Part shown: in pieces, positions 210 through 30,104 of the stretch | How the letters are laid out: each line of letters opens with the position of its first letter | Numbering within the stretch: position 1 is the stretch's first letter | NCBI GenBank assembly: GCA_021814355.1 | Contig: JAKAIJ010000001.1 | Coordinates: 1 to 49,962 of the forward strand | Direction: 5' to 3' | From: Acidobacteriota bacterium | GTDB taxonomy: Bacteria > Acidobacteriota > UBA4820 > DSQY01 | Length of the DNA: 49,962 nucleotides | Notes under the pieces: generated by a model | What the model was told of the DNA's origin: nothing | What the model saw: the letters and a program-made list of their open reading frames with translations, nothing else | Database searches by the model: none | Program-made: the position numbers and the translations under genes

Positions 210-2168
210 TTAACCGTCGGGTCGCTCCCCCTCCGCCTCCGAATCCGCGGGATTGCCCATGCGGGTCCCGGAGAGGGCCGCCTCGGGCAGGATCTCCCCC
301 AAAAGCACCCGCAGGGGGCCTTCGCCGCCGTCGCGGGCGAGCGCCGCGAGGCGGGCGAGCGCCTCCTGGACCTCCGCGCCCGGCCGGGAGGCGATCTTCC
401 CGATGAAGATCTTCGGGTGGCGGGTCTTGGCGATTTCCTCGCCCTCCGTGTCCAGCACCTCCACCAGCTTCTCGCCGGGGCGAACGCCCGTGAAGACGAT
501 CTCGATATCCTCGCCGGGCTTGAGCCCCGAGAGGTGGACCATCTCGCGGGCCAGGTCCGCGATGCGCACCGGCTCGCCCATGTCCAACACGAAGATCTCC
601 CCGCCTTCGCCCATGGCCCCAGCCTGCAGGACGAGCTGGGCGGCTTCGGGGATGGTCATGAAATAGCGCACCATGTCGGGGTGGGTCACGGTGACGGGCC
701 CACCCTTCCGGATCTGCTCGCGGAAGATGGGGATCACGGAGCCGGCCGAACCCAGGACGTTTCCGAAGCGCACCGCGAGGAATCGCGTCTTGAAGCGGGC
801 GTTCAGCCCCTGCACCACCAGCTCGGCGACGCGCTTGGAGGCGCCCATCACCGAGGTGGGGCGCACGGCCTTGTCGGTGGAGATGAAGACGAACACCTCC
901 ACGCCGTGGCGCCCGGCGGCCTCGCCGAGGGCGGAGGTGCCCAGGACGTTGTTCTTCACCGCCTCGGTGGGATTCCACTCCATCAGGGGCACGTGCTTGT
1001 GGGCCGCCGCGTGGAAGACCACCTGGGGCCGGTACCGGGCGAAGATCGAGTCCATGCGGGCTTCGTCGCCCACGTCCGCCACGAGTGGCACCAGGGGTAA
1101 CCCCGGTAGGGCGGCGCGCAGCTCGCGGTCAATGTCGAAGAGGGCGAACTCGGCCCGCTCCACCAGGAGCAGCCGCAACGGGCCCAGGCGCGCCACCTGG
1201 CGGGCCAGCTCCGACCCGATGGAGCCGCCCGCACCCGTGACCATGACCACCTTGCCCGTCAGGAACCGGCCCACCTCGGCCTTGTCCAGCTCCACCGCCT
1301 CGCGCCCCAGGAGGTCCTCGATCTCCACGTCGCGGATGCGGTTCACCGCCACGCGGCCGTCGAGGATCTCGAAGAGGCCGGGGATGATGCGGACCTTGAC
1401 GGGGACGCGGTCGCAGAGGGAGACGAGGGCGGCGATGTCCTTGCGGGAGGCCCGCGCGATGGTGATGATGACGTGGTCAATGCCGAGCTCGGGAACGAGA
1501 CGGGGAAGGTCGGCGGTGGTGCCCAGCACCCGGACGCCGGCGACGACCGCGCCGTGCTTCTTCGGGTCGTCGTCCAGAAAGCCCTTCACGTCGAGCCCCG
1601 TGGAGGCCCGGTTGACGATCTCGCGGGCCGCCAGGACGCCCGCCTGCCCCGCACCCACCAGGAGCACGGGGGTGAGCTCCCGTCCGCGCCGGCCGCTCTC
1701 CTGCTTCAGCTTCTCGTACCGCTCGTACAGCAGGCGCCGCACCACCCGGAGACCCAGAACGCCGCCGAAGGCGAAGGCGGTGTCCATGACGATAATGGAG
1801 AGCGGCACCCGCCACTCCTGGAGCCGGTCGGTGAGCGCCAGCCTCAGGGCCACGATCGGGAGGAAGGAGGCGGCCGCCGCGTAGACGAAGGCCTTGACCT
1901 CGCCCAGGCTGATGTAGCGCCAGATGAAACTGTAGACGCCGGTCAGCTGGAGGGCGGCGAACTGGACGAGGACCACCAGCGGGAGCTGGTAGAGCATGAG
2001 GCGGAGCTGCCCCCCCGTGGGCGCCAGCTCGAACCGCAGGACGTAGACGAACACGAAGGTCGCCGAGAGGGCCGCCAGGTCCAGGGCGAACTGCACCCGC
2101 TGCGTCAGAAGGCGGTTCCAGAGGTTTGATCCTCTTTCCGGGGCCGCCGGTCCGGGATGGCCCGTCAT
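210..2168 (-). CDS. Membrane-anchored polysaccharide biosynthesis protein of the CapD/WbpM/PglF type (nucleotide-sugar 4,6-dehydratase).
   Basis: N-terminal hydrophobic helices are followed by two Rossmann-like regions (LLVGAGQAG and VMVTGAGGSIGSEL) and the CapD-type core (FVFISTDKAVRPTSVMGASKR). The start was placed at ATG 2168, which forms an ATGA overlap with the upstream stop. The longer ORF to 2378 would overlap the E1-beta gene. Confidence 0.85.
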   Translation of the reverse strand: MTGHPGPAAPERGSNLWNRLLTQRVQFALDLAALSATFVFVYVLRFELAPTGGQLRLMLYQLPLVVLVQFAALQLTGVYSFIWRYISLGEVKAFVYAAAASFLPIVALRLALTDRLQEWRVPLSIIVMDTAFAFGGVLGLRVVRRLLYERYEKLKQESGRRGRELTPVLLVGAGQAGVLAAREIVNRASTGLDVKGFLDDDPKKHGAVVAGVRVLGTTADLPRLVPELGIDHVIITIARASRKDIAALVSLCDRVPVKVRIIPGLFEILDGRVAVNRIRDVEIEDLLGREAVELDKAEVGRFLTGKVVMVTGAGGSIGSELARQVARLGPLRLLLVERAEFALFDIDRELRAALPGLPLVPLVADVGDEARMDSIFARYRPQVVFHAAAHKHVPLMEWNPTEAVKNNVLGTSALGEAAGRHGVEVFVFISTDKAVRPTSVMGASKRVAELVVQGLNARFKTRFLAVRFGNVLGSAGSVIPIFREQIRKGGPVTVTHPDMVRYFMTIPEAAQLVLQAGAMGEGGEIFVLDMGEPVRIADLAREMVHLSGLKPGEDIEIVFTGVRPGEKLVEVLDTEGEEIAKTRHPKIFIGKIASRPGAEVQEALARLAALARDGGEGPLRVLLGEILPEAALSGTRMGNPADSEAEGERPDG

Positions 2169-3163
2169 CCGCGCCCCCGGGCCACGACCTCCCGCGCCGC
2201 GGCGACCACCTGCGCCGCGCCGGGGTAGTAGGCGGCCTCCAGGCTGCGGCTCGCGGGGGCGGGGAGATCGGGCAGGGCCACGCGGACCGGCGCGGCCTTG
2301 AGGCCGGCCCAGCAGGCTTCGGTGATCTGCGCGGCGATCTCCCCGCCGATGCCCCCCGTCCTCCAGCCAACGTCGCAAACCACGGCGCGCCCGGTCTTCG
2401 AGACGGATTTCACGACGGTCGCAGCGTCCAGCGGCTTGAGGGTGCGCAGGTCAATTACCTCCGCGGAGATCCCCTCCTTCGCGAGGACCGCCGCGGCCTC
2501 CAGGGCCTTGGGCGCCAGGTAGGAGAATGCGACGAGGGTCACGTCGGTCCCCTCGCGGCGGATGGCCGCCTTCCCGATGGGCGTCCCGTAGACCTCCGTG
2601 GGGACCTCCTCCTCGCCACCGTAGAGCCATCGCTCGTCCACGAAGACCACCGGGTCGTCGTCCCGGATGGCGGCGACCATCAATCCCTTGGCGTCGCGGG
2701 GGGTCGAGGGAGCCACCACCTTGAGGCCCGGGACGTGGGCGAAGACGGAGTGCAGCGCCTGGGAGTGCTGGGCGGCCTGCTCCCCCGCCCGGTTGATGAT
2801 CCCCCAGAACACCACCGGCACGTGGGCTGCGCCCCCGCTCATGTACCGCCAGTTGGCCGCCTCGTTGATGATGGGGTCGAAGGCGTAGAGCATGAAGTCC
2901 ATCCGGGGGTGGACCACGACGGGGCGCAGGCCCGCGAGGGCCGCCCCGACGGCCGCGCCGGTGACGGCGTTCTCCGAGACGGGGGTGTCGTAGACCCGGC
3001 GCTCGCCGAAACGGGCCACGAGGCCGTTGCAGGTGTTGCCCACGTACCACGGGCTCTTGACGCCCTGCCCAATGAGGACCACGGAGGGGTCCTCCTCCAT
3101 CACCTGGTGGAACGCCTCGTTGATGGCGAGGCCGAAGCCGAGCCTACGGCCGGGAGAAGACAT
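2165..3163 (-). CDS. ThDP-dependent 2-oxoacid dehydrogenase E1 component, beta-subunit-like (transketolase pyrimidine-binding and C-terminal domains).
   Basis: 332 aa. AINEAFHQVMEEDPSVVLIGQGV, RVYDTPVSENAVTGAAVGAALAG, HSQALHSVFAHVPGLKVVAPSTPRDAKGL and VIDLRTLKPLD are characteristic of AcoB/PdhB-type E1 beta. ATG at 3163. Confidence 0.85.
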   Translation of the reverse strand: MSSPGRRLGFGLAINEAFHQVMEEDPSVVLIGQGVKSPWYVGNTCNGLVARFGERRVYDTPVSENAVTGAAVGAALAGLRPVVVHPRMDFMLYAFDPIINEAANWRYMSGGAAHVPVVFWGIINRAGEQAAQHSQALHSVFAHVPGLKVVAPSTPRDAKGLMVAAIRDDDPVVFVDERWLYGGEEEVPTEVYGTPIGKAAIRREGTDVTLVAFSYLAPKALEAAAVLAKEGISAEVIDLRTLKPLDAATVVKSVSKTGRAVVCDVGWRTGGIGGEIAAQITEACWAGLKAAPVRVALPDLPAPASRSLEAAYYPGAAQVVAAAREVVARGRG

Positions 3164-4136
3164 GGTCAGCGAGCTCCTTCGTGGCGGGGAAATCCGCCGC
3201 GCGGGCGGCGGACGCGGCGGCTTCCACCTCCGCGGCGATCCTCTCGTCGAGCGAGGCGAGCTCCGCCTCGCCGGCCGCCCCGTCCCTCAGGAGGAGGGCC
3301 CGGAGCCGGCCGATGGGGTCCCGTTTGCGCCACCTTTCGATCTCCTCGGGAGAGCGTATGTCCGTGTGGGCCCCCTGGATGTTGTCGTCGGGCCCCACGT
3401 GGCCCCTCCACCGGTAGGTGAGGGCCTCGAGGAAGACGGGGCCCTGTCCGGCCCGGCACCGCGAGACGGCGCTCGACGCAGCCTCGTACACGGCGAGGGC
3501 GTCGTTCCCGTCCACGCGGCGGGCGGCGATCCCGAAGGGCTCCGCGATCTTGTAGACCTCCTCGGAGGGCCGGCACTCGAGGATGGGGAGGTGGGTGGAG
3601 TAGAGGTTGTTCTCGCAGACGAAGATGGCGGGGAGCTTGAGGACGGCGGCCAGGTTGAGGGACTCGTAGAGGACCCCTTCCCCCGTGGCCCCGTCCCCGA
3701 AGAAGGAGACGCTGACCCGGCCGTCGCCGCGGACCGAGGCGGCGTAGGCGGCCCCGACGGCGAGAGAGATGGTCCCGGCCACGATGGGGGCGGCCCCCAT
3801 CATCCCCGCGGAGGGGGCGATCACGTGCATGGAACCGCCCCGCCCGCGGGCGCAGCCCGTGGCCTTGCAGTAGATCTCCGCCACCATCTTGGCCAGGTCG
3901 CCGCCCTTGGCCAGGTAGTGGCCGTGGGAGCGGTGCGACCCGAACACGTAGTCCCCGTCCTCCAGGGCCGCGCACACGCCGGCCGCCACCGCCTCCTGCC
4001 CCGTGTAGAGGTGGACGGGGCACTTGACCTCCCCGCTCAGGATCGGCTCCACGAACCGCTCCTCGACGAGCCGGATCCTCAGCATGGTTCGGTACAAATT
4101 CAGAAGAAGCGTCGTCCGGTCTGTGCCTTCCATCAT
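3144..4136 (-). CDS. ThDP-dependent 2-oxoacid dehydrogenase E1 component, alpha-subunit-like.
   Basis: The start was set at ATGATG 4136..4131, preceded by GGGAGGG. The ThDP-binding motif is GDGATGEGVLYESLNLAAVLKLPAIFVCENN, and HRSHGHYLAKG and RGRGGSMH are typical of E1 alpha. The gene ends at TAG 3146..3144 and overlaps the E1-beta start by 20 nt. Confidence 0.85.
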   Translation of the reverse strand: MMEGTDRTTLLLNLYRTMLRIRLVEERFVEPILSGEVKCPVHLYTGQEAVAAGVCAALEDGDYVFGSHRSHGHYLAKGGDLAKMVAEIYCKATGCARGRGGSMHVIAPSAGMMGAAPIVAGTISLAVGAAYAASVRGDGRVSVSFFGDGATGEGVLYESLNLAAVLKLPAIFVCENNLYSTHLPILECRPSEEVYKIAEPFGIAARRVDGNDALAVYEAASSAVSRCRAGQGPVFLEALTYRWRGHVGPDDNIQGAHTDIRSPEEIERWRKRDPIGRLRALLLRDGAAGEAELASLDERIAAEVEAAASAARAADFPATKELADHVFSRP

Positions 4137-4233
4137 CCCTCCCGCACCCCGACGGTTTGTCGTCTCCGTCCGGGCGCCTTCGCCGTTGGTTCCGCCGGGG
4201 GCCGGCCGCCGCGGAAGCGGTCCGGTCGTCCGT

Positions 4234-5190
4234 TCACTGGCATGGGGGATCCAGGTCCGCGGCGATCCGCTCTCGGATTTGTCCACAATCCATCCGCGCG
4301 GCGGCGACGGCCTGTTCCATCTGCCGGCAGTTCTTGACCCCCACCGTGACGCAGCGCACGAGGTCACTGCCGAGGACCCAGCCGATGGCCGCCTGGGCGA
4401 CGGTGCAATCGAATGCCTCCGCGGTCCCCCGCTACCGTTCCACCACGTGCAGCGACCGCCGATACTCCTCGCCCCGGAACGCCGGAAGTCGTTCCCGTCG
4501 GTCGCTCTTCTCGAAGCTCGAGGCCACCCCGTACTTCCCGGAGAGGATGCCGAAACCCAGGACCCCGTAGGCCATCGCGCCGACGCCGAGGGCCGCGCAC
4601 CGGGGGAGCGCCTCCGCCTCCGCGCCCCGGTTCAGGAGGCTGTATTCCATCTGCGCCAGCGCGACGGGGCCCAGCGCACTCGCCGCCGCGATCTGCCCGG
4701 CGCTGAAATTCGACACCCCGAAATATCGGATTTTCCCCTCTCGCTTGAACTCGTTCAGCGTCTCGATCGTCTCCTCGAGCGGGGTTTCCGGGTCGGGCTT
4801 ATGGACGAGGTAGACCGGGATCGCGTCGAGCCGGAGCCGCCGCAGGCTGGCCTCTAGGGCCCTTCTCATGTGCGCCTCCGAGTTGTCAATGCGGGTTTCC
4901 GCCCTCCCGCCGGAGGCGCTCTCCTTCCAGGCCACGCCGAACTTCGTGATGATGACCGCCTCTCGCCTGCGGGGGCCGAGCGCGTCCGCGAGCCTCTCCT
5001 CGCTCCGGCCGAGGCCGTAGACATCCGCCGTGTCAAACGCGTTGACGCCGAGATCGAGCGCCCTCCCGACCGCCCTCGCGACCTCGCCCTCCTGGATCGT
5101 CCCCCAATCGGTGCCCCCCAGCTGCTCGCACCCCATCACGATCCTGGAGGCGGATAGCTCGCCGCTCCCGATTTTCACATACTCCATCAT
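4234..5190 (-). pseudogene. Aldo-keto reductase interrupted by an in-frame TAG (4434..4432).
   Basis: The N-terminal 252 codons (MMEYVKIG...DTADVYGLGRSEERLADAL...YLVHKPDPETP...GKIRYFGVSNF) are AKR-like. After the TAG the same frame continues RGTAEAFDCTVAQAAIGWVLGSDLVRCVTVGVKNCRQMEQAVAAA, the normal AKR C-terminus, and ends at TGA 4236..4234. The start ATG 5190 forms an ATGA overlap with the upstream stop. Confidence 0.75.
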
Positions 5191-5849
5191 CCACCGCCCG
5201 GGCCGGCCGGGCCGCCGCCGTCCGTGGACCCGCGGCCCTCTCCGCGCCGAACAATCCGCCAGAGCGTCCGCGCGATCAGCTTCAAGTCGAGCCACAGGCT
5301 CCGATCCTTCACGTACTGCACGCGGAGCCGATTCTTGGTCGGAAGGACCATCCGCTCGAACGCCTCATCGGGGTCGCCTTCGCCGAGCACGTCGCCGAGC
5401 TGGATGAAGCGGATGGACGAATAGTCGGTGATCCCCGGCATGACGCTCAGGATCAGCTTCTCCTCGCCCTCATACTGGTCCGTGTAGCGGGGGACCTCGG
5501 GACGCGGGCCCACGAGGCTCATCTCTCCCCGGACGACGTTGATGAGCTCGGGGAGCTCGTCCACCTTGTGCCGGCGGATCCAGCGCCCGACCCGGGTGAC
5601 GCGGGGGTCGTTCTTCGCGGTGGAGGACGCCGTGGCCTCAGCGCCCACCGCCATCGAGCGGAACTTCCAAACCCGGAAGGGCCGCCCGTAACGGCCCGTG
5701 CGGAGCCCGCGGTAGAACACGGGCCCCGGGGAGTCGAGCTTGATGCAGACCGCCACGACGCCGAAGAGGGGGGCCAAGAAGGCGAGCCCGGCCGCCGCGA
5801 GCACGACGTCGAGGAGCCGCTTGACGGCTTCATAGGCGCGTTCGCGCAT
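5187..5849 (-). CDS. Small phosphoglycosyl transferase (bacterial sugar transferase family, PglC/WbaP C-terminal type); initiating enzyme.
   Basis: 220 aa starting at ATG 5849. There is one N-terminal hydrophobic re-entrant helix (KRLLDVVLAAAGLAFLAPLFGVVAVCIKL), followed by PVFYRGLRTGRYGRPFRVWKFRSM, DELPELINVVRGEMSLVGPRP and PGITDYSS. Confidence 0.85.
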   Translation of the reverse strand: MRERAYEAVKRLLDVVLAAAGLAFLAPLFGVVAVCIKLDSPGPVFYRGLRTGRYGRPFRVWKFRSMAVGAEATASSTAKNDPRVTRVGRWIRRHKVDELPELINVVRGEMSLVGPRPEVPRYTDQYEGEEKLILSVMPGITDYSSIRFIQLGDVLGEGDPDEAFERMVLPTKNRLRVQYVKDRSLWLDLKLIARTLWRIVRRGEGRGSTDGGGPAGPGGG

Positions 5850-5893
5850 CGCGGCGGTTCTCCCGCGCCGGGTCGCGGCGCCCTCCGCGCCCT

Positions 5894-7204
5894 TCAGCAC
5901 GGGGCTCCGTGGACAAAGGGCGCGCCTTCCTTCCCTGCCCGCGCAAAGGATTCCGCGAGCCGCTCGAGGTGGGCGGCCATATCGCCGTAGACGACCTCCG
6001 CGGCATACCGCTCGTCGAAAATCCCTCTCGCCCGGGCCGCCATCCGCCGCACGGCGTCCGGGTCCCGGCTCAGGCCGACGAGGAGGCGGGCGAGGCCGGC
6101 CCCGCTGCCGGCCTCCCAACTCGTCCCGCAGCCCTCCCCGACGAGCAGCTCGTGGAGGACGCCGCGTGTCGGACAGGAGACCACGGGCAGGCCCGCGCTG
6201 AGATACTCGATGGCCTTGTTGTTGATGCTGGCGAGAAAATCGAAGCGGTCGGGCAGGGGATCCAGTCCCACCGAGCTTCGCCGCAGCAGGACGAAGATCT
6301 GGGCGGCGTGGATGCGGCCGGGGAAGAGGACGCTCCTCAAATTCCGGGCCATCTCGCGATAACGGGCGAGGTGCTCGCCGTCGCCGCACAGCACAAAATG
6401 GACGCGCGGCTGTCCCTCCCCCTCCAGCCGGGCCGCCGCGCCGATGACCGGCTCCAGGTCGAGCGTCCTGCCCATCGTGCCGATGAAACACGCTCGGAAC
6501 GCGCCGTCGTCCCGCACGCCGAGGCCGTCCCAAAAGCGCGCAGCCTCCTCGAGGGAGACGGCCTCGGGCGCCTTTGCCCGGTAGCCGAACGGGAACCAGC
6601 GGTCCCATTCCGTGCCCTCCCGTTCGCCCCGCTTCAATCCCCACTCGAGCAGCGCGCGCGTGACACCACTGATCGCGGTCGCGCCCGCGCACGCCTGCTC
6701 CGACTTTTTCCAGGCAGGCCGGAGCAGGAGGGCCGCGAGGGGACGCCCCCAGCGCGGGAACAGCTCGACAAAGATGTCGGGATGCAGGTCCCGGATGTCC
6801 AGCACGACCGGGACGCCGGCCTCCCTGCCGTAGCGCACGGCCTCGAAGCCGAACTCGATCGTCGGATAGGCGCACAGGATGACGTCGGGGCGCTCCTCCC
6901 CGCGGGCGCGCGAGGCGAACTTCGCGGCGATCAGCCTGTGCTCGCGCATCCGGCGCAGGGAGACGTTGCGCCGGTACCCGCACCCGTGGAGCATCCGGAT
7001 CGTTACCCGGTCGCCCCAGCGGAAGTCGGCATCCTCGCCGTGGAAATGCGTCCGGCTGTAGTGGTCAAAGGTCGAGGTCCACCAGGTGACGCGGTGGCCC
7101 CGCGCCGCGAGGGCCTCCGCGAGAAGCCCCGTGCGGTGCAGGCGGTCCTGTTTGCGGGCCGCCAGCGGTAGAGGCTCGCCGGTCTTGATAAGCCAGACGT
7201 TCAT
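5894..7204 (-). CDS. Glycosyltransferase, GT-B fold (GT4-like).
   Basis: 436 aa with ATG at 7204. The N-terminal half is typical of WbuB/WcaI-like GT4 enzymes (KTGEPLP...RGHRVTWWTS). The C-terminal half has the sugar-donor region (NNKAIEYLSAGLPVV). Confidence 0.65.
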   Translation of the reverse strand: MNVWLIKTGEPLPLAARKQDRLHRTGLLAEALAARGHRVTWWTSTFDHYSRTHFHGEDADFRWGDRVTIRMLHGCGYRRNVSLRRMREHRLIAAKFASRARGEERPDVILCAYPTIEFGFEAVRYGREAGVPVVLDIRDLHPDIFVELFPRWGRPLAALLLRPAWKKSEQACAGATAISGVTRALLEWGLKRGEREGTEWDRWFPFGYRAKAPEAVSLEEAARFWDGLGVRDDGAFRACFIGTMGRTLDLEPVIGAAARLEGEGQPRVHFVLCGDGEHLARYREMARNLRSVLFPGRIHAAQIFVLLRRSSVGLDPLPDRFDFLASINNKAIEYLSAGLPVVSCPTRGVLHELLVGEGCGTSWEAGSGAGLARLLVGLSRDPDAVRRMAARARGIFDERYAAEVVYGDMAAHLERLAESFARAGKEGAPFVHGAPC

Positions 7205-7241: not shown

Positions 7242-8378
7242 TCACGCCTGGGTCGCGATCCTGCGGAAGGCGTTCTTGAAGAACCGCATCTCGTGGAAAA
7301 GGAAGTTGTGGCTGGGGTAGACGGTGTGCGGCTTGGGGGGCTCCGCCAAGAGGGCCGCGAACTCCTCCCGGCTCAGGCCGAACTTCTTCAGGACGAACTG
7401 CATGTCCTGCTTGAGAAGCAGCCCGTCGTAAACGGGCTTCTCCATCTCGGCCAGCGCCCGTTCGCGGGTCATGAGGTTCGAGCAGATCATCGTGGAGTAG
7501 TGGGGCCTCCGCTTGTCGTACCCGAACTTGACGGGCAGGTAGTAGCCCTGGAAGAAGCGCGTCCAGACGGACTCATAGTGCTTTCCCCCGTAATCCCGCC
7601 AGCCCAGTTCTTTTTCCAGGATCCGCTTGGCCTCCTCCTTGTCGTAGTGGACGTAATTGAGGAAAGGGATCTGCCGCATCCGCCGGACGAAGACATAGTA
7701 GAGGTAGTGGGAGAGGGAAATGGTGGGCATGGTCTGGAGAGGCTTCGTGCCGAACCTCCGGTGGACGGCCTTCAGGTGCCGGAGGTCCTGGTTGTAGTAG
7801 GCCCAGGAGATGGGCATGATCGCCTCCGTGGCGAGGTTGCTCCCGCTCAAGATGAAGCGCACCTTCAGCCGGGCGGCCATCCGGAACAACAGGGCCGTGA
7901 TCCCGTGGTCGGTGGGGATCTCGCAGTTCGCCACCGAGGCCCTCAGAAAGGATATCTGGAGGTCCCGGAACTCCTCCCAGTCCACCACGTGCGTGTAGAG
8001 CTCGATCCCGAGGTGATCGAGCGCGCGCTTGATGTTGTCCACCGCCAGCTCGGAATTCCACCCGTTGTCGAAGTGCACGGCGAGCGGACGGAGCCCGAGT
8101 TTCTTCACGAGGTAGGCGGTCATGGTGCTGTCCACCCCGCCGCTCACCCCGATGACGCAGTCGTACTCCTTGCCACGCCCCTCGTGCTGAATCTGCGACG
8201 CCAATTTTTGGAGGGCGAGGTCCCGCGCCTCGGGCGGGAGGAGCTGCGCTTTCATCCTCGCGAGGGCGGACGTGCAGTGGTTGCAGACGCCGCCGGCGCC
8301 GAAGCTGATCTCCGGCTCGCTGGTGTCCATGATGCAGCGCGTGCAGACCTGGTAGGGCCTCGCCACGTTTTTCCTCAC
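7242..8378 (-). CDS. N-acetyl sugar amidotransferase (PP-loop ATP pyrophosphatase; WbpG/LfnA/PseA/WbuX family), copy 1.
   Basis: There is an N-terminal zinc ribbon (CTRCIMDT...GVCNHC) and a PP-loop (VIGVSGGVDSTMTAY). It lies downstream of a HisH/HisF-like pair, as in known acetamidino loci. The start is GTG 8378; the Cys ribbon rules out the later ATG. Confidence 0.8.
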   Translation of the reverse strand: MRKNVARPYQVCTRCIMDTSEPEISFGAGGVCNHCTSALARMKAQLLPPEARDLALQKLASQIQHEGRGKEYDCVIGVSGGVDSTMTAYLVKKLGLRPLAVHFDNGWNSELAVDNIKRALDHLGIELYTHVVDWEEFRDLQISFLRASVANCEIPTDHGITALLFRMAARLKVRFILSGSNLATEAIMPISWAYYNQDLRHLKAVHRRFGTKPLQTMPTISLSHYLYYVFVRRMRQIPFLNYVHYDKEEAKRILEKELGWRDYGGKHYESVWTRFFQGYYLPVKFGYDKRRPHYSTMICSNLMTRERALAEMEKPVYDGLLLKQDMQFVLKKFGLSREEFAALLAEPPKPHTVYPSHNFLFHEMRFFKNAFRRIATQA

Positions 8379-8525: not shown

Positions 8526-9380
8526 TCACCGGTCATCCAGGCGCTTCCTCATCAAGAAGGTGAACTGCCACGCGAGGTTGCGGATCACCGGGATTCGCAG
8601 CAGGATCCTGTCCATGCCGGCCAAAAAGTCCTTCAGGGGCCCGAACACCGAAAGGCGCCGGAAGGGCACTGCGAGGAGCGCGAGCAGGTGCCAGTACCGG
8701 ACCTCTCGAATCTCGAAGAAGGCGGAGGCGAACCGAAGCTCCTTGTGGGAGATGATGTGCTCCACCTCAAAGGCAGTGCGCAGCTGCGGCGTGAGCCTCC
8801 GGTAGAGCTTGATCGCCGGGTTGTAATTGAGCGCCTCGTTCACGACGGCCACCGCACCGGGCTTCATGACGCGCCGCAGCTCGGGCAGGGCGTAGCTCAG
8901 GTCGAGGTGGTGGAGCATTCCGGCGCAGATTACCACGTCCACGCAGTTGTCCGGAAGCCCCGTCTTCTCGCAGTCGCCCACCAAGAAATACGAATTCCCC
9001 TCCACGCCCGCCTTCCGGGCGGCCGCCCTCGCGTTCGCGATGGACCCCCGGCTGATGTCGAGGCCGATGCTCAGCAGGGCGTGGGCCTGCGCGGCTTGGA
9101 CGGCGCACTCGCCGTTTCCGCAGGCGTAGTCGAGCACGACCTTCCCCGGCGAGTTTTGCGCGATCCAACCCATAAGATACCGCTCCGAGCTGCCCGCCAC
9201 CGAGTAGAACTTGCTGTTTTCCGCCGAGCCCTGGTGGTCGTGGGAGTTATCGTGAAACTTCGCCTCCTCGATCTTCCTCGCGGCTTGAGACTTGAGCCAC
9301 GCTTCGTCCGAGAACCGGTCGAGCTCCCGCAGCACCGAAATCAGCCGTTCTTTCTCGTCCACCTGCGAGCGTTCCGTCAT
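8526..9380 (-). CDS. Class I SAM-dependent methyltransferase.
   Basis: Start at ATG 9380, preceded by GGAGGA. SAM-binding motif I is VLDYACGNGECA, followed by the acidic loop GLDIS and DVVICAGMLHHL. Confidence 0.75.
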   Translation of the reverse strand: MTERSQVDEKERLISVLRELDRFSDEAWLKSQAARKIEEAKFHDNSHDHQGSAENSKFYSVAGSSERYLMGWIAQNSPGKVVLDYACGNGECAVQAAQAHALLSIGLDISRGSIANARAAARKAGVEGNSYFLVGDCEKTGLPDNCVDVVICAGMLHHLDLSYALPELRRVMKPGAVAVVNEALNYNPAIKLYRRLTPQLRTAFEVEHIISHKELRFASAFFEIREVRYWHLLALLAVPFRRLSVFGPLKDFLAGMDRILLRIPVIRNLAWQFTFLMRKRLDDR

Positions 9381-9541
9381 CGGCCGTCGTCCTCCAAGAA
9401 TGTTCGCGCATCCTGACCCGGACCGGGGCGTTTTCGAGAAGCGCGGGAGCAGTCCGTCTGCACCGCCGGTCCGCGACCGGGGCCGTTCTTCCGTCCGAAC
9501 TCCGTCGCGGCCGCACCCCGGGCTCGTCCCGGCCGCCTCGA

Positions 9542-10312
9542 TCACCGCGTCGGCCGGAAAAGGGCCGACAAGGCGTCCTGCGTGGGGTAGCTGATCAGGA
9601 CCGCGCGGTGTTTCCCGTGGAACACAAACAGGCTCCCGGCCGCGACGGCCGAGGCGCCGCCCTCCTGGACCGCCGCCCTCAGGTCGTCCAGCCTCCCCGC
9701 GCCTCCACAGGCGATGACCGGAATCCGGACCGCGGAGGCGACGGCGCGGACCAGTTCCAGGTCGTAGCCCGCCATCGTGCCGTCCCGGTCAATGGAGTGC
9801 ACGACGAGCTCTCCCGCACCCTGATCCTCCATTTCCCTGGCGAAGGCCGCCGGCGCGAGCTTCGCGTTCCGGCGGCCGCCGTGGGTGTGGACTTCGTGGC
9901 GCCCGAACAGGCTCTTCTTCGCGTCAATGCACACCACGACGCTCTGGCTGCCGAACTCCCGGGCGGCGGCCCCGACCAGGGCCGGGGTCTCCACCGCGGC
10001 CGCGTTGACGATCACCTTCTCAACCCCCAGCTGCAGCATCGCCCGGGCGTCCTCCACGGACCGAATCCCCCCGCCGTAGGCGACGGGCATAAAGGCCTCG
10101 CTGACGATCTCCCGGATCAGCTCGAACTGGGGTCGTCTCCCTTCGGGGGTCGCCAGGATGTCGAGAATGACGAGCTCGTCCACCTCTTTTTCGTTGAAGA
10201 TCTTGACGGCGTTCCTGGGGTCCCCGACGTACTTCGGGTCCCGGAACCGGACGGTCTTCACCAGGCCCCGCCCGCTGAGAAGGAGGCAGGGAATGACCCG
10301 CGCGGCGATCAC
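9542..10312 (-). CDS. Imidazole glycerol phosphate synthase cyclase-subunit homolog (HisF-like, WbuZ-type), copy 1.
   Basis: Start at GTG 10312, in a GTGA overlap with the hisH-like stop. RVIPCLLLSGRGLVKTVRF, PVAYGGGIRS, CIDAKK, SIDRDGTMAGYDLEL and IPVIACGGAG are HisF TIM-barrel signatures. Confidence 0.85.
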   Translation of the reverse strand: MIAARVIPCLLLSGRGLVKTVRFRDPKYVGDPRNAVKIFNEKEVDELVILDILATPEGRRPQFELIREIVSEAFMPVAYGGGIRSVEDARAMLQLGVEKVIVNAAAVETPALVGAAAREFGSQSVVVCIDAKKSLFGRHEVHTHGGRRNAKLAPAAFAREMEDQGAGELVVHSIDRDGTMAGYDLELVRAVASAVRIPVIACGGAGRLDDLRAAVQEGGASAVAAGSLFVFHGKHRAVLISYPTQDALSALFRPTR

Positions 10313-10929
10313 GCGGACATCTCCGCGAAATTCTGGAGGAGCTTCAAGCCGAACTTGTGGCTCTTCTCGGGGTGGAACTGGGTCCCCATGATATTGCCCT
10401 GGACGACCGCCGCGTGGAACGTAATGCCGTAGCGCGCCGTGGCCAGGACGCAGCCTTCGTCCGCACACCGGACGTGGTAGCTGTGAACGAAGTAGAAGCG
10501 CGGTGTCGGGTACATGTCGTGGAGGAGCGGGCTGGGGGTCCGGACCTCGATCGTGTTCCATCCCATGTGGGGCACCTTAAGGCCGGCGTGCCCGTCGTCC
10601 CACCTGAACCGTACCACCTCCGCGTCAATCCACCCGAGGCCGGGCAGCGTGCCCTCCTCGCTCCGCCTGGAGAGGAGCTGCATGCCGAGGCAGATTCCCA
10701 AAAAGGGCGTCCTCTCGCCGAGGACCTTCTCGCGGAGCACGGGGAGCAGCCCGAGCCCCCGCAGGCTCTCCATCGCCCGGTCGAAGGCGCCGACGCCGGG
10801 AAGGATGATCTTCCCGGCCGAACCGATGACCCCGGGGTCGGAGGTGACGACCGAGTCGGCCCCGATGCGGTTCAGCATGTTGTGGATGGAGCCCAGGTTC
10901 CCCATCCCGTAATCCACGATCGCGATCAC
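10309..10929 (-). CDS. Glutamine amidotransferase subunit homolog (HisH-like, WbuY-type), copy 1.
   Basis: Start at GTG 10929 (GTGA overlap, with GGAGG 6 nt upstream). IAIVDYGMGNLGSI, ILPGVGAF, GICLGMQLL (catalytic Cys) and FHPEKS (His/Glu) give the class I GATase triad. Confidence 0.85.
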   Translation of the reverse strand: MIAIVDYGMGNLGSIHNMLNRIGADSVVTSDPGVIGSAGKIILPGVGAFDRAMESLRGLGLLPVLREKVLGERTPFLGICLGMQLLSRRSEEGTLPGLGWIDAEVVRFRWDDGHAGLKVPHMGWNTIEVRTPSPLLHDMYPTPRFYFVHSYHVRCADEGCVLATARYGITFHAAVVQGNIMGTQFHPEKSHKFGLKLLQNFAEMSA

Positions 10930-12056
10930 CGGCGTGCCTCCCACTCGGCCCGCGCCTCCTCTAGCATCCGGGCGAGCACACGACGGTTCGACTCCGCGTC
11001 GCCCCGCGCCTCCACTTGGGCCCGGTTGGCGGCGGCGTGGCGCCCCCCCTCGCCCGCCGTCCGCACGGCGTGGAGCAGGGCCTGGGAGAGCGCGACGTCG
11101 TCGTCCAGCGGGACCAGCCGGCCGTTGCCCGCCGCCGGGTCCACCCACTCGCGGTTCTGCGGGATGTCCGAAAGGACCGGGTAGAGGCCGCACGCCAGCG
11201 CCTCCAGAAGCGAAGTCGCCGTGCCGTCGGAGCGGGACGTGGAGACGTACACTGCGGAATCGTGAAGGGCCTCGACCAGCCGGGCGTAGGGAACCCCGCC
11301 CCAGAAGGCCACCTTTTCGCGGAGCGCCGGCCGAAGGATCTGCGCCGCCAGGCCTTGCGCCTCCTCCAGGAGCTCGCCTCCGGAAGTGAAGACCAGCCGG
11401 AAGTCGGGCGCATCCTCCGGAAACCGCGCCACCGCCCGCAGGATTGCCGCGTTGTCGTACACCGCCGCGAACCCGCGCGTGCAGACGATCTGGACAGGGC
11501 CCGGCCTGGGCTCCGCTCGATGGAAGAGCCGCGTGTCCACCCCGAGCAGCAGCGGGACGACGGAGGCCCGCGGGGCCTGCTCGCGGGCGCAGGCGGCCAG
11601 GTACCCGCCGTTGGCGAAAACGCGCGAGGCCCCGGCGAGCGTCGCCCGGTTGATCCTCCGCACCCAGCGCCCCGCCAGCAGGACGTCGCTGCCGACGACG
11701 TACGCGCAATAGGGACGCACGCCGCTCCAGTAGGCCATGAGCGTGTACCCACCCCCGTAGAGGGTGAGCACCATGTCGGCCCGGAGATCCCGGGCCAGGC
11801 GGGCGAAGCGCCTCGCGTAGAGGGCGTACCGCATCTTGCCCGGGACCGGCGGCCGGGCGAGGTGGACCGCGGAGACTTGGTCCCGGCGAAAGCGCTCGAA
11901 GTCGGCGACGACGCCCGCAACCTTGCCGCTCACGGACCCGACCTCCGGCACATCCTCAAAGTCGAAGACGTGGACCTCGTGGTCGAGGGACTGGAGCGTG
12001 GCCGCTGTGGACATGGACCAGGGACAGAGGTGCGTCATGCAGATCAGGATCCTCAC
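10926..12056 (-). CDS. Glycosyltransferase, GT4-like.
   Basis: Start at GTG 12056 (GTGA overlap). The C-terminal E-x7-E-like region is SDGTATSLLEALACGLYPVLSD, and the protein has the two-domain GT-B length of 376 aa. Confidence 0.65.
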   Translation of the reverse strand: MRILICMTHLCPWSMSTAATLQSLDHEVHVFDFEDVPEVGSVSGKVAGVVADFERFRRDQVSAVHLARPPVPGKMRYALYARRFARLARDLRADMVLTLYGGGYTLMAYWSGVRPYCAYVVGSDVLLAGRWVRRINRATLAGASRVFANGGYLAACAREQAPRASVVPLLLGVDTRLFHRAEPRPGPVQIVCTRGFAAVYDNAAILRAVARFPEDAPDFRLVFTSGGELLEEAQGLAAQILRPALREKVAFWGGVPYARLVEALHDSAVYVSTSRSDGTATSLLEALACGLYPVLSDIPQNREWVDPAAGNGRLVPLDDDVALSQALLHAVRTAGEGGRHAAANRAQVEARGDAESNRRVLARMLEEARAEWEARR

Positions 12057-22941: not shown

Positions 22942-24105
22942 TCAGCACGCCCCCGCTTCGGCGAGATGGGCGAGGAGGGATTCGATCACCCGCTCCTGCT
23001 GGGCTTCGGTGAGCGACACGCTGCACGGCAGGCTCAGGCCCTGGGCGAAGAGCCGCTCGCCCACCGCGCCGCCCAGACGGGGCGCGTCCCGATAGAAGGG
23101 CATGAGGTGGGCCGGGGCCCAGACGGGGCGCGTCTCGATGCCCTCCGCGGCCAAGCGCTCGAAGAGCGCCTTCCGGTCAAGGCCCGCCTCCTCGGGATCC
23201 ACGAGGATCGAGTAAAGCCAGAGGGTGGGGCCGGCCCAGGAGGGCCTCGGCGGGACCGTTACGCCGGGGAGGTTTGCGAGAGCCTCGTCGTACCGTGCCG
23301 CGATCGCGCGCTTCCTTTCGATGAAGGCCCCGAGCTTCTCGAGCTGGGCCACGCCGAGGGCCGCGTTCAGGTTGGTCAGCCGGTAGTTGAAGCCGATCTC
23401 GTCGTGGAGATACTCGGGCCCGGGCAGCCTCGCCTGGGTGGTGAGGTGTTTGGCCCGCTTGGCCAGCGCCCCGTCCGCGGTGGCGATCATCCCGCCGCCG
23501 CCCGTGGTGATGATCTTGTTCCCGTTGAAGCTGAAGCAGCCGAGGAGCCCCACGGTCCCAACCTGGCGGCCCGCGAGGGGCCCCGAGGCGTAGCTGGCGC
23601 CGAGGGCCTCCGCCGCGTCCTCCACGAGAACCACGCCGTGCCGTGCGCACGCCTCCGCAACGGAGGCCAGGTCGGCCGGAAGCCCCAGGATGTGGGCCGC
23701 GAGGACGGCCTTGGGCATCTTCGCGCCCGCGCGCGCCCGGCGCTCGAGCTCCGCCACCACGAAGTCCGGGGCGAGGTTCCAGGTGGCCAGGTCGGCGTCC
23801 ACCAGGACCGGCCGGGCCCCCAGGTAGGTGATGGGGTTCACCGTCGCCACGAAGGTGAAGTCCGACACCAGGACGTCGTCCTCCGGCCCGACGCCCGCCA
23901 CCTTGAGCGCCACGTGGAGCGCGGCGGTCCCGTTGGCGCAGGCGACGGCGTGGCCAGCCCCCGCACGGGCGGCGAACTCCACCTCGAAGCGGCCCACGAA
24001 GGGCCCCACCGAGGAGACGAAGTTGGTCTCGACGCACTCCCGGAGGTAGCGCTCGGCGTTGCCTTCCAGGCAGGGGACGGAGAGCGGGATGGTTTCCATG
24101 CTCAT
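22942..24105 (-). CDS. legC: DegT/DnrJ/EryC1-family PLP-dependent sugar aminotransferase, LegC-like.
   Basis: ANGTAALHVAL is present, and the Lys-containing motif CFSFNGNKIITTGGGGMI matches my recollection of LegC-type enzymes rather than WbpE or PglE. Length 387 aa. Confidence 0.7.
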   Translation of the reverse strand: MSMETIPLSVPCLEGNAERYLRECVETNFVSSVGPFVGRFEVEFAARAGAGHAVACANGTAALHVALKVAGVGPEDDVLVSDFTFVATVNPITYLGARPVLVDADLATWNLAPDFVVAELERRARAGAKMPKAVLAAHILGLPADLASVAEACARHGVVLVEDAAEALGASYASGPLAGRQVGTVGLLGCFSFNGNKIITTGGGGMIATADGALAKRAKHLTTQARLPGPEYLHDEIGFNYRLTNLNAALGVAQLEKLGAFIERKRAIAARYDEALANLPGVTVPPRPSWAGPTLWLYSILVDPEEAGLDRKALFERLAAEGIETRPVWAPAHLMPFYRDAPRLGGAVGERLFAQGLSLPCSVSLTEAQQERVIESLLAHLAEAGAC

Positions 24106-24118
24106 GGAATCTCTCTTC

Positions 24119-25492
24119 TCAAAACTGGTAATAGAGAAAGACCGTGTCGCGGCCGTTCATGAACAGGTAGGCGCAGAAGAGGGCGGCGGCGCTGGCCGCG
24201 GCCCAGCGGTGGCTGGCCTTGTAGGGGAACTCCCAGCTCGACGGGAGGCCGTTCGCCGCGAGGAGGCAGAGCCCGATGAGGCCGGCCAGCAGGGCCGGCG
24301 CGCCCGCCGCTCCAGACCGGTCGAGCCCGAACATTTTTCCCAGCCAGACCGCGGCCATGTGGAAGTCCGTGGCCCGGAACAGCACCCATCCGACGATGAC
24401 CAGGACGAACGTGAGCCCCCGGAACAGGGGCTTCGGCAGCCGCGCCGTCAGCGGCCCCGCGAGGCGGTCCAGGATGAGCAGGAGTCCGTGGTAGGCGCCC
24501 CACGCGACGAAGGTCCAGTTCGCGCCGTGCCAGAGCCCGCCCAGGAGCATCGTGAGCATCAGGTTGAGATCCGTGCGCAGCGCCCCGCGGCGGTTTCCGC
24601 CCAGGGAGATGTAGAGGTAATCCCGCAGCCAGCTCGAGAGGCTGATGTGCCAGCGGCGCCAGAAATCCCGGATGCCCAGCGCCTGATAGGGGACGTTGAA
24701 GTTCTGGGGGATCCGGATGCCGAACAGGTACCCGAGCCCGATGGCCATGTCGGAGTACCCGCTGAAGTCGTAGTAGAGCTGGAACGTGTACCCCAGCGCC
24801 GCCCCCCACGCGCCCCACGTGGAGAGCGCCCCGTAGTCCGAGAGCATGGGGTTGACGAACTGGGCCAGCGTGTCGGCGAGGATCACCTTCTTGACCATGC
24901 CGACCGCGAAGAAGCCCACCCCCCGGGCGACGTAGTCCTCGGGGAGGCTCCGGTCAATGTGCTCCAGGTCGTCCTCGATCTGGCGGAACCGGACGATCGG
25001 GCCGGCCACGAGCTGCGAGAAGAGGCAGACGTAGGTGAAGTACTCCCAGATGTTGCCGGTGGCGCGGACCCGGCCCTGGGCCACATCCACGATGTAGGAG
25101 ATGGTGTGGAAGGTGTAGAAGCTGATCCCCACCGGCAGGATGATGTTGAGGATGGGGAGGGCGGCTTCCCCCGCCAGGCCGTTGAGGGTCCCGGCGGCGA
25201 AGTTGTAGTACTTGAAGAAACCGAGCAGCGCCAGGTCCACGGTGATGGAGGTCGCCATCCAGAGCAGGCGCCTGCCGGCGGTGGCGGAACGCTGGATGAG
25301 GAGCGCGGAGAAGAAGCTGACCAGGCTGGAGAAGGCGAGCAGGAAGCAGTAGCGCCAGTCCCAGTAGCCGTAGAAGACGTACCCGCTCACCGTGAGCAGG
25401 AGGTACCGCTGGCGCTTGGTCTTTGAGAGCCAGAAGAGGCTGAAGACCACCGGGAAGAACAGGAAGAGGAAGACGTTCGAGTTAAAGACCAT
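24119..25492 (-). CDS. MBOAT-family membrane O-acyltransferase (AlgI/DltB/PatA-like).
   Basis: The typical AlgI N-terminus is MVFNSNVFLFLFFPVVF. Also present are FWRRWHISLSSWLRDYLYISLGGNR and LLGGLWHGANW, which contains the conserved His. Confidence 0.85.
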   Translation of the reverse strand: MVFNSNVFLFLFFPVVFSLFWLSKTKRQRYLLLTVSGYVFYGYWDWRYCFLLAFSSLVSFFSALLIQRSATAGRRLLWMATSITVDLALLGFFKYYNFAAGTLNGLAGEAALPILNIILPVGISFYTFHTISYIVDVAQGRVRATGNIWEYFTYVCLFSQLVAGPIVRFRQIEDDLEHIDRSLPEDYVARGVGFFAVGMVKKVILADTLAQFVNPMLSDYGALSTWGAWGAALGYTFQLYYDFSGYSDMAIGLGYLFGIRIPQNFNVPYQALGIRDFWRRWHISLSSWLRDYLYISLGGNRRGALRTDLNLMLTMLLGGLWHGANWTFVAWGAYHGLLLILDRLAGPLTARLPKPLFRGLTFVLVIVGWVLFRATDFHMAAVWLGKMFGLDRSGAAGAPALLAGLIGLCLLAANGLPSSWEFPYKASHRWAAASAAALFCAYLFMNGRDTVFLYYQF

Positions 25493-26564
25493 TCTTTTCC
25501 CGGTCGCGGGCCAGCGCGCGCACGATCAGCGCCGCGTTGCTCTCGTCCACATGCCCCCCGTCGTACCACCCCGTCTCCGTCCCGCCGAAGCCGCCCGGCT
25601 CGCTGAAGTCGCGGAAGGGAGCGCCCGCTTCCTTCGCGCTCGCGGCGGCGAACTCGCGCGCGGCAGAGAGCAGCGCGGGGTAGCGCGTTTCGCGCGCGAG
25701 GTAGGCGGCCAGGTCCGGGTGGAGGGGCGTGAGCCACAGCACGACGCGCACGCCGTCCCGCCGCGCTTCCCCGAGGAGGGTCCGGAGCCGGAGTTTCCGC
25801 TCCTCCGAGAGGCCCCGCATCTCCTTGAACCTCCGGAGGTACTCCTCGCGGCTCCCGGCGAGGTTCGCCTGGAGGTCGAAGGAGCCGTCGCGCCGCTGTC
25901 CCTCCCACCGCACGTAGTGCAGGTAGCCCGCGCCGTCGAAGCTCATCAGGACCGGAGGCCGGTGCACCGCGATCTGGAGGGAGCGAACCACGTCCTGCGC
26001 GTAGAACCGGCTCATGACGGTCTTGAGCCGGGTGAGCGCGTCGCCGAGGGGCGCTCCGCCCCCGCTTCCCGCCCCTCCGCCTTCCAGTGCCCTCATCAGC
26101 TCCGGGCAGGCCTTGAGGCGGTCGTCGAACCCGACCCCGTCGTGGAACGCCTCCACGTCGAGTCCGAGCAGGACCGAGTCCAGGCCCGGGTCCCGCCGGC
26201 GCGCCCAGCGGTAGATGGCGAGGTAGTCTTCGGCGCGGGCGCTGTCCACGGAGAAGTTGAACCACCTCTTGCCCGTGAGCCGGCCGAGGTCCTCGGGCGC
26301 GACTTTCATCGCCCGGCTCGACCCGAGCACCAGCCCCTGCACCGGCCGGGTTCGGTTGCTCCGGTCGAAGAGGTACATCTTCTCCTTCCGCGAGTCCAGC
26401 GAGACCGTGGGGAAGACGCGGATCCCGAAGTCCCCGCGCGGGTCTACCCACACCGCGAGCGCCAGGTAGGCGCCGGACAGGGCGCAGAGCCACGCCAGGA
26501 AGGTCCGCGAGAACCTCCGGCCGTCGCCGCGGGCGGTCCCGGCCTCGGGGGTCATGGTTGGCAA
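25482..26564 (-). CDS. Membrane-anchored SGNH/DltD-like partner of the MBOAT.
   Basis: There is one N-terminal TM helix (FLAWLCALSGAYLALAVWV), a GSS block (LVLGSSRAM) and a C-terminal DxxH block (YDGGHV). It overlaps the MBOAT start by 11 nt. The start is TTG 26564 (GGAGG 6 nt upstream) or ATG 26555. Confidence 0.55.
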   Translation of the reverse strand: MPTMTPEAGTARGDGRRFSRTFLAWLCALSGAYLALAVWVDPRGDFGIRVFPTVSLDSRKEKMYLFDRSNRTRPVQGLVLGSSRAMKVAPEDLGRLTGKRWFNFSVDSARAEDYLAIYRWARRRDPGLDSVLLGLDVEAFHDGVGFDDRLKACPELMRALEGGGAGSGGGAPLGDALTRLKTVMSRFYAQDVVRSLQIAVHRPPVLMSFDGAGYLHYVRWEGQRRDGSFDLQANLAGSREEYLRRFKEMRGLSEERKLRLRTLLGEARRDGVRVVLWLTPLHPDLAAYLARETRYPALLSAAREFAAASAKEAGAPFRDFSEPGGFGGTETGWYDGGHVDESNAALIVRALARDREKNGL

Positions 26565-26675
26565 AACAAACCTCCGGATCGCCGAGAGTCCCCCCCGAAT
26601 CCCGCGAGGAACTTCTCCGCCGTCCGAAGCAAAGCTCCGGAAGGCGAATCGTGCACGATAGATCGCAACCTGGCA

Positions 26676-28705: not shown

Positions 28706-28778
28706 CGCGTCTCCCCGTCAGCGGCGGCGCATCAGGAAGCGTCTCCCCCGGGGTGTCCGGAACGGCGCCGCCCCCCGA

Positions 28779-29726: not shown

Positions 29727-29804
29727 TTCACCCTACCTGCCGCACGGCCCCGGGGACGGCCGCCTGCCGGCGCGGACGAATGCGAGGAGAGGCGAAAAGG
29801 CGCC

Positions 29805-30050: not shown

Positions 30051-30104
30051 GAACACCTCCGTGGGCGGGGTCGCCTGGGGTCCGGAGACGGTGTGGAACG
30101 CCCG

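Follow-up and report, generated by a model that had tools for sequence, protein, structure and literature searches.

Gene content of the module

In a stretch of 49,962 nucleotides of contig JAKAIJ010000001.1 from an Acidobacteriota bacterium (assembly GCA_021814355.1; this whole stretch is called the window hereafter), we analyzed a gene pair encoding proteins that resemble the alpha and beta subunits of the E1 component of 2-oxoacid dehydrogenases, which depends on thiamine diphosphate (ThDP). A first-pass annotation had proposed that this pair does not serve a dehydrogenase complex and instead takes part in the two-carbon (C2) branching of a 4-keto-6-deoxy-hexosamine. The window has a G+C content of ~70% and nearly all its genes lie on the minus strand. 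The pair belongs to a module (210-5849) situated at the downstream end of one large glycan locus, which makes up the rest of the window. The genes in question are the following.

210-2168, minus strand: membrane-anchored UDP-N-acetylglucosamine (UDP-GlcNAc) 4,6-dehydratase of the PglF/CapD/WbpM type, 652 amino acids (Pfam Polysacc_synt_2, 8.8e-116, and CoA_binding_3)
2165-3163, minus strand: E1 beta-like subunit, 332 amino acids (Transket_pyr, 1.3e-32, and Transketolase_C, 3.6e-38)
3144-4136, minus strand: E1 alpha-like subunit, 330 amino acids (E1_dh, 3.6e-69)
4234-5190, minus strand: aldo-keto reductase (AKR), full frame, interrupted by a TAG (Aldo_ket_red, 4.3e-52)
5187-5849, minus strand: small monotopic phosphoglycosyl transferase (PGT), 220 amino acids (Bac_transf, 1.5e-54)
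5894-7204, minus strand: glycosyltransferase of family 4 (GT4), by family match
8526-9545, minus strand: S-adenosylmethionine-dependent methyltransferase (Methyltransf_11/25)

The order of transcription is GT4, PGT, AKR, E1 alpha, E1 beta and 4,6-dehydratase. Gene calls and Pfam matches thus agree with the first-pass annotation in placing the E1 pair between a CapD/WbpM-type dehydratase on one side and an AKR and a PGT on the other. In the PGT-AKR-E1 alpha-E1 beta-CapD module, three of the four junctions have overlapping start and stop codons, with an ATGA overlap at both the PGT/AKR and the E1 beta/CapD junctions and a 20-nt overlap between the E1 alpha and E1 beta genes, while a GGGAGGG Shine-Dalgarno sequence lies immediately 5' of the E1 alpha ATG. 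The translational linkage that had been noticed for the E1 pair is therefore confirmed, and extends along the module.

The best relative of the dehydratase in the PDB is PglF from C. jejuni (5BJU, 289 bits), with which it has in common the segment STDKAVRPT..VMGxxKR (VMGASKR in the window), and the enzyme is the predicted source of a 4-keto-6-deoxy-N-acetylhexosamine (HexNAc) acceptor. The PGT, predicted to be the initiating enzyme that loads the modified sugar-1-phosphate onto polyprenyl phosphate, is 53-58% identical to the PGTs of four AKR-containing cassettes from other genomes (L013, L091, L092 and L093, see below). It scored 95 bits against the catalytic domain of WbaP and 72 bits against PglC. 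The 'aromatic box / GLLLP' fingerprint of PglC-type PGTs that act on di-N-acetylbacillosamine was considered as an indicator of the substrate and proved not usefully applicable, the WbaP match being the better one and the window PGT containing an insertion.

A reductase had been listed in the locus by the first-pass annotation. The AKR gene is present, as its Pfam match indicates, and it is not intact, since an in-frame TAG, of which the annotation made no mention, occupies positions 4432-4434. At the aligned site, four orthologs (the alignment including L005, L013 and L014) have a leucine. Downstream of the TAG, 65 codons stay in frame and clearly similar to the orthologs, up to a TGA at 4234-4236, and the public gene call for the contig corresponds to the shortened product (P0271; 4432-5190; 252 amino acids). 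The TAG may have arisen by a recent nonsense mutation, or else reflect an error of assembly or sequencing. The predicted catalytic Asp, Tyr, Lys and His should be found in the segments DTADVY, ITKFG and LVHKPD, all upstream of the TAG.

A clade of E1 pairs apart from dehydrogenase complexes

The E1 alpha subunit displays an intact ThDP motif, GDG-X26-NN, at residues 147-177 (window 3606-3698), as had been read from the sequence beforehand. The histidine of its YRxxGH segment is conserved, and so are Glu64 and His133 of E1 beta. This set of residues is conserved alike in the clade described below and in true dehydrogenase E1s, and so does not discriminate between them. The domains of the window enzyme are only E1_dh and transketolase-type domains and are carried by two chains, an organization distinct from that of the single-chain YerE-type enzymes. 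Against the equivalog model for the E1 alpha of pyruvate dehydrogenase (PDH), TIGR03182, the E1 alpha subunit scored 309.6, below the cutoff of 393.85; its score against TIGR03181 was also below cutoff (221.5 for 411.35), and its match to human PDHA1 amounted to 181 bits. E1 beta passed only a subfamily-level PDH E1 beta model of NCBIfam, PRK09212, with 338.8 bits for a cutoff of 321, and matched the PDH E1 beta of G. stearothermophilus (3DUF) with 250 bits.

A protein search returned 7,996 significant relatives of the E1, with identities of 62% or more for the best 120 of the 7,996. When one genome per species was scanned, 80 loci were obtained and their similarity showed a clear step, 20 loci being at 52-75% identity and the rest at 49% or less. 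We called clade A the E1s that are 52-78% identical to the window pair. The first survey of this clade comprised 24 loci, and six-frame open reading frames (ORFs) of all loci were scored against seed proteins; seven further clade-A neighbourhoods, read via precomputed Pfam annotation, agreed with this survey. When a representative library was searched, the whole clade fell into a few 50% clusters, with a best identity of 51-54%.

Clade A, the glycan-linked E1s, was monophyletic in a neighbour-joining tree. Its members share a near-invariant loop, GH-VGPDDNIQGxxTDIRP, that contains an insertion of 3-6 residues compared with the E2-linked E1s. In the window this clade-specific loop reads YRWRGH-VGPDDNIQGAHTDIRSP (3348-3416). 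In the alignment, the insertion falls at phosphorylation loop A of human PDHA1, a position that we take to line the active-site channel. The phylogeny had been set beforehand as the refuting test for the first-pass proposal, and it placed the pair outside the E1s linked to E2 and E3, in a separate clade found within PGT/CapD cassettes.

The neighbourhoods are in agreement with the tree. Among the E1s with at most 49% identity, most loci encode an E2 catalytic domain beside E1 beta, and no locus has a PGT or a CapD. In clade A, on the other hand, ORF clustering found E1 alpha and E1 beta in all 24 loci, a small PGT in 20/24, mostly directly upstream of E1 alpha, and CapD in 12/24, within a few kb; the loci in which a cassette component is missing are mostly short contigs. 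No E2 was present in any of 28 clade-A loci (0/28), and the 50-kb window yielded no match to an E2 catalytic domain. In addition, no E2, E3 or lipoyl domain was found among the window ORFs scanned with Pfam and NCBIfam, a scan that omitted some stretches such as ~35.7-36.7 kb, and all the coding ORFs so scanned are either glycan-biosynthesis genes or devoid of a family match. The earlier statement that the pair has no E2, E3 or lipoyl partner nearby therefore holds for the ORFs scanned and, as regards E2, for the clade. The cassette recurs in about ten phylum-level lineages, mostly of uncultured bacteria, including Acidobacteriota, Desulfobacterota/Syntrophia, Omnitrophota, Patescibacteria, Margulisbacteria, Nitrospirota, Planctomycetota, Bacteroidota and Gammaproteobacteria.

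These data bear on the possibility that the pair is the E1 of an ordinary pyruvate, acetoin or branched-chain 2-oxo acid dehydrogenase whose E2 and E3 are encoded elsewhere. Such an assignment would fit the domain architecture, the catalytic residues and the score of E1 beta above the PRK09212 cutoff, and our view of the genome is limited to the window. We nevertheless consider it extremely improbable, given the sub-cutoff score of E1 alpha, the separate clade with its own loop insertion and without E2, the recurrence of the same cassette across distant lineages, and the translational coupling of the pair to glycan genes. The E1 pair is a stand-alone ThDP enzyme and not a housekeeping E1, in line with the first-pass view that a 2-oxoacid dehydrogenase complex was unlikely.

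Other E1 pairs without E2 were encountered outside clade A. A sister group, mostly from Alphaproteobacteria (L036, L068 and L070; also L030, L067 and L025), has the loop REH-CGP-N[FY]DN. In L036, L068 and L070 the E1 pair is followed by two DegT aminotransferases, and no PGT or CapD was detected within the locus. This group is possibly another sugar-modifying E1 family. In the plasmid collection, no clade-A members were found; a match from Phaeobacter was a normal E1-E2-E3 operon, and the best match from Streptomyces (L085; Streptomyces griseofuscus plasmid pSGRIFU1, 8989-18077) was an E2-less E1 pair followed immediately by the gene for a condensation-domain protein and, a few genes later, by those for an acyl carrier protein and a phosphopantetheinyl transferase. 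This is not a sugar context, and it suggests that the E1, within a secondary-metabolite cluster, delivers acyl groups to a carrier protein.

Tailoring enzymes and the proposed sugar branching

To what the first-pass annotation had suggested looking for, namely E1 pairs next to capD and pglC homologs, the neighbourhood survey gave a positive answer, and it added two alternations: between an AKR and a DegT aminotransferase, and between an E1 pair and a split transketolase. The second one emerged from a search with the repaired AKR sequence, from which five distinct ortholog neighbourhoods, corresponding to six loci, were read. All five have a PGT directly upstream of the AKR and a two-subunit ThDP enzyme beside it. 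In four of them the ThDP enzyme lies directly downstream, and in L091 it is one gene away on the opposite strand. The ThDP enzyme is an E1 alpha/beta pair in L092 and L093, where it forms a sister subclade 49% identical to the window pair. In L091, L094/L095 and L096 it is a split transketolase (Transketolase_N plus Transket_pyr/Transketolase_C). Thus, L096 (5586-11851) shows the order methyltransferase, PGT, AKR, N-terminal and C-terminal transketolase subunits, CapD-like dehydratase, and a cultured isolate, Mesorhizobium sp. Root554 (L091, 7483-12888), has methyltransferase, PGT and AKR together with a split transketolase. Since E1 alpha/beta and transketolase both transfer a C2 carbanion to a carbonyl, their occurrence in the same slot argues for carboligation and not for a role in a dehydrogenase complex.

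Besides the components mentioned above, ORF clustering of the 24 clade-A loci identified a DegT aminotransferase in 17/24, one methyltransferase family in 9/24 and an AKR in 4/24 (the window, L005, L013 and L014). AKR and DegT never occur together (0/24), one or the other adjoining the E1 pair. This mutual exclusion fits alternative tailoring enzymes acting on one carbonyl, and the scattering of the AKR variants through the E1 tree indicates that the tailoring enzyme was exchanged repeatedly. We distinguished three variants of the cassette. The window has the first one, [methyltransferase]-PGT-AKR-E1 alpha-E1 beta-CapD, and the order from PGT to CapD is kept in a Syntrophus chromosome (L013) and in a metagenome-assembled genome (MAG) of Steroidobacteraceae (L093). 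The second variant, which is the commonest, combines DegT with, in every case, a class-I amino-acid-type aminotransferase, here called T2, whose nearest relatives are AroAT, AspAT, YbdL and KAT (L089, 10068-12593; L003, 12183-15437; L008, L015, L016, L018, L020, L087, L088 and L090). The third has a single DegT and a small methyltransferase. The E1-linked DegT proteins are nearest DesV, WbpE and QdtB (231-275 bits) and far from PglE and PseC (~91 bits). Finally, the methyltransferase at 8526-9545 of the window belongs to an ortholog cluster (cluster 11) represented in all four AKR-variant loci and in several others, and its orthologs in relatives stand directly upstream of the PGT. It is possibly part of the module.

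Taken together with published precedents, these features lead us to think it probable, with some reservation, that the E1 pair adds a C2 unit from pyruvate onto a UDP-4-keto-6-deoxy-HexNAc and that the branch ketone is then reduced; a stand-alone ThDP-dependent carboligase would be, by analogy, the best explanation for the pair. The clade phylogeny and the neighbourhood survey support the C2 branching put forward in the first-pass annotation, the chemistry itself being what we infer. In a first step, the PglF/CapD-like enzyme, judged by its close homology to PglF, would convert UDP-GlcNAc into UDP-2-acetamido-2,6-dideoxy-hexos-4-ulose. E1 alpha/beta would then decarboxylate pyruvate to hydroxyethylidene-ThDP and add it to the C4 ketone, as gene context and precedents suggest, giving a tertiary alcohol with a 4-C-acetyl branch. 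The AKR, the predicted branch-ketone reductase by analogy with Pau7 of paulomycin biosynthesis, would reduce this branch to 4-C-(1-hydroxyethyl). The linked methyltransferase may methylate the product, and the small PGT, as its family and position suggest, would move the sugar-1-phosphate to a lipid carrier, making it the first sugar of the repeat unit. In the source genome the TAG leaves three possibilities: it may stem from an error of sequencing or assembly, it may have abolished the reduction step so that the acetyl branch is retained, or it may be a sign of a decaying module. A 1-aminoalkyl branch is predicted for the aminotransferase cassettes, and a hydroxyacetyl or dihydroxyethyl branch for those with a split transketolase.

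Several points weigh against this interpretation. The likeness to AviB1, Pau11 and KbDH was drawn from published descriptions. The AKR of the window is interrupted by a premature stop. In NCBIfam and the PDB it is nearest AKRs of the YdjG/IolS/GSP69 types, its top NCBIfam match being the methylglyoxal reductase model YdjG with 119 bits, far under the cutoff of 550, and Pau7 was assigned to AKR5, so that the analogy between the two reductases is functional and not orthologous. The simple scheme assigns no function to T2, which is constant in the commonest variant and might provide a 2-oxo acid donor other than pyruvate. Lastly, the AKR or the DegT could act on the ring C4 ketone instead of the branch. 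Counting against such a ring-ketone role, a ThDP enzyme accompanied every AKR ortholog examined, and the linked DegT does not resemble PglE.

The YdjG match of the AKR and the presence of T2, a class of aminotransferases that normally handle small 2-oxo acids, would also fit an E1 pair that made a small non-sugar unit from 2-oxo acids, such as acetaldehyde, acetoin or another acyloin; this unit, once reduced by the AKR or aminated by the aminotransferases of sister cassettes, would be linked to the glycan through an ester, amide or ether bond, and the CapD product would have its own separate processing. AsnB-like amidotransferases and a UDP-sugar dehydrogenase, which are frequent neighbours of the cassette, point in the same direction. 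We find this rather unlikely, for no attaching ligase or transferase is conserved with the E1 pair, and its tightest and most constant partners, with their ATGA overlaps, are the PGT and the 4,6-dehydratase. Moreover, the DegT partner belongs to a family of nucleotide-sugar aminotransferases, and the swap with a split transketolase is easier to reconcile with C2 transfer onto a carbonyl acceptor than with production of a free aldehyde.

The resemblance of the cassette to PglF-PglE-PglD-PglC minus the acetyltransferase brings up another chemistry on the nucleotide sugar, in which the pair would acylate a 4-amino group from a 2-oxo acid, replacing PglD, or would catalyze a ThDP-dependent C-C cleavage or rearrangement, with the AKR or DegT acting on ring C4. 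It is true that the aminotransferase variants have no N-acetyltransferase as a regular member. However, hydroxyethyl-ThDP could acylate an amine only with the help of an oxidant, for which no gene is present, the AKR variants retain the E1 pair although they offer no amino group for acylation, and the E1-linked DegT proteins are those of the DesV/WbpE/QdtB side described above. To our knowledge, the reductases known to act on UDP-4-keto-6-deoxy-HexNAc are short-chain dehydrogenases/reductases (SDRs) and not AKRs. This chemistry is thus quite unlikely in our opinion, and C2 branching at C4 remains our preferred interpretation.

Extended to the whole set of cassettes, C2 branching would define a new class of reducing-end sugars across many uncultured lineages, C4-branched 2-acetamido-6-deoxy amino-octoses (1-hydroxyethyl, 1-aminoalkyl or dihydroxyethyl), built by interchangeable ThDP carboligases and tailoring enzymes. 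We put this generalization forward tentatively, the odds being in our view close to even and slightly against it.

The remainder of the glycan locus holds a Wzy polymerase, several GT4 enzymes, AsnB, an MBOAT protein, a FabH-like enzyme and a UDP-sugar dehydrogenase. Two acetamidino (amidine) sets, each of WbuX, HisH-like and HisF-like (WbuZ/AglZ) genes, were found, at 7242-8378, 9542-10561 and 10309-11709 for the first and at 30838-32175, 32207-32965 and 32880-34238 for the second. A gene set resembling that for legionaminic acid, a nonulosonic acid, extends over ~22945-39357, with a NeuC-type hydrolysing 2-epimerase, a PseF-like cytidylyltransferase, a CBS-domain nucleotidyltransferase, GFO/IDH/MocA oxidoreductases and a hexapeptide acyltransferase. 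The only DegT of the window lies within this set (22945-24156) and is LegC-like, with 406.7 bits for a LegC-family cutoff of 420. A FabH-like ketoacyl synthase III (KAS III), an SDR and an MBOAT protein in the same region suggest an unusual acyl decoration. Two adjacent genes of the NTP_transf_5 family ('uncharacterised nucleotidyltransferase') are located at 42310-43614 and 43533-44960, and this family also adjoins the E1 cassette in L001 and L092.

Comparison with known sugar-branching systems

Literature searches for a connection between E1 alpha/beta and PGT, CapD or O-antigen clusters gave no description of the cassette; it may be listed in Krug et al. 2024 (Angew. Chem. e202403535), who reportedly described ~120 gene clusters for E1-type branching enzymes (alphaKADH2), some of these cassettes being possibly among them. 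Antibiotic sugar pathways offer a precedent for every step of the proposed route. The Pau11/12 (Plm8/9) and AviB1/B2 pairs add a pyruvate-derived C2 unit at C4 of keto sugars, KbDH-alpha/beta has been assayed in vitro on sugar-like ketones, transamination of the branch ketone takes place in kibdelomycin, and split transketolases were proposed for miharamycin and amipurimycin (PMC4753412, PMC4802897, PMC12247030). In paulomycin, the C-4' acetyl branch was shown to be reduced by Pau7, an aldo-keto reductase assigned to AKR5 (PMC4753412). The precedents cited in the first-pass annotation, YerE/YerF and the AviB1/AviB2-type pairs, were correctly chosen, and paulomycin Pau11/12 with the AKR Pau7 is a closer one (PMC4753412). 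A 2025 review places E1-type ('alphaKADH2') and transketolase-type branching in secondary metabolites only, all 13 candidate branching transketolases coming from streptomycetes, and attributes the branched sugars of lipopolysaccharides to YerE-like enzymes (PMC12247030). The novelty claimed for an amino sugar of a surface polysaccharide agrees with this review (PMC12247030).

The alphaKADH2 pairs (AviB1/AviB2, Pau11/Pau12 = Plm8/Plm9, AlmDI/DII of aldgamycin and KbDH-alpha/beta) resemble the window pair in that an E1 pair without E2 or E3 operates in a deoxysugar pathway near a 4,6-dehydratase. Their pathways likewise include a linked enzyme that modifies the branch ketone (the AKR of paulomycin, the transaminase of kibdelomycin) as well as O-methylation. 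The same context is seen in the cassettes, with a keto-sugar supply from a translationally coupled PglF-type dehydratase and a linked AKR or DegT, the AKR of the window containing the TAG. In contrast, the alphaKADH2 pairs act on dTDP- or NDP-bound 2,6-dideoxy or trideoxy hexoses in secondary metabolism of Actinomycetota, whereas here the predicted acceptor is a UDP-2-acetamido sugar whose product would go to the initiating PGT of a surface glycan, in Acidobacteriota, Desulfobacterota, Omnitrophota and others. A further difference is that split transketolases can take the slot of the pair in the cassette.

As is predicted for the window pair, YerE/YerF of yersiniose A and the YerE-like ErwE, MMAR_2332 and MygE, which serve sugars of lipopolysaccharides and lipooligosaccharides, draw on ThDP to attach an acyl anion equivalent from a 2-oxo acid to the C4 ketone of a nucleotide-activated 6-deoxy sugar destined for a surface glycan, after which the branch is reduced with NAD(P)H. 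By analogy, the E1 pair is predicted to fill the pathway position that YerE/YerF has in yersiniose. YerE differs in being a single chain of the decarboxylase/acetolactate-synthase superfamily that acts on CDP-3,6-dideoxy-4-keto-glucose, whereas the enzyme of the window, with its split E1 alpha/beta organization, belongs to another ThDP superfamily and has a predicted UDP-HexNAc-derived acceptor. The title of one cited paper terms YerE a flavoprotein.

The outcome of the pathway is most likely a two-carbon branch on the amino sugar that begins a surface glycan, a kind of sugar so far unreported from any polysaccharide. Shewanellose is an existing 4-C-branched 6-deoxy-HexNAc, with a branch connectivity that is different and not ThDP-like. 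If our interpretation is right, E1-type ThDP sugar branching, of which only actinomycete antibiotics have so far provided known cases, would extend to cell-surface glycans and UDP-amino sugars, and a new family of reducing-end sugars would be predicted in bacteria with glycans never analysed. The cassettes would also offer a large and diverse source of ketone-accepting ThDP carboligases, which are sought for the production of chiral tertiary alcohols (PMC12247030).

With the di-N-acetylbacillosamine pathway PglF-PglE-PglD-PglC and with EpsC-EpsN-EpsM-EpsL, the module shares a PglF-type dehydratase and a small monotopic PGT that build a reducing-end sugar from UDP-GlcNAc. It differs from them in having, over 210-7204, no PglE-type C4 aminotransferase or PglD-type N-acetyltransferase, and an E1 pair and an AKR instead. 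Finally, PdhAB and AcoAB have in common with the window pair the fold, the ThDP motif and the catalytic Glu and His; they differ from its clade, which lacks an E2/E3/lipoyl partner in 28 loci, forms a separate branch of the tree and has a loop insertion of 3-6 residues. If the pair is indeed a sugar-branching enzyme, caution would be needed when such genes are annotated as pyruvate or acetoin dehydrogenase in metabolic reconstructions from MAGs.

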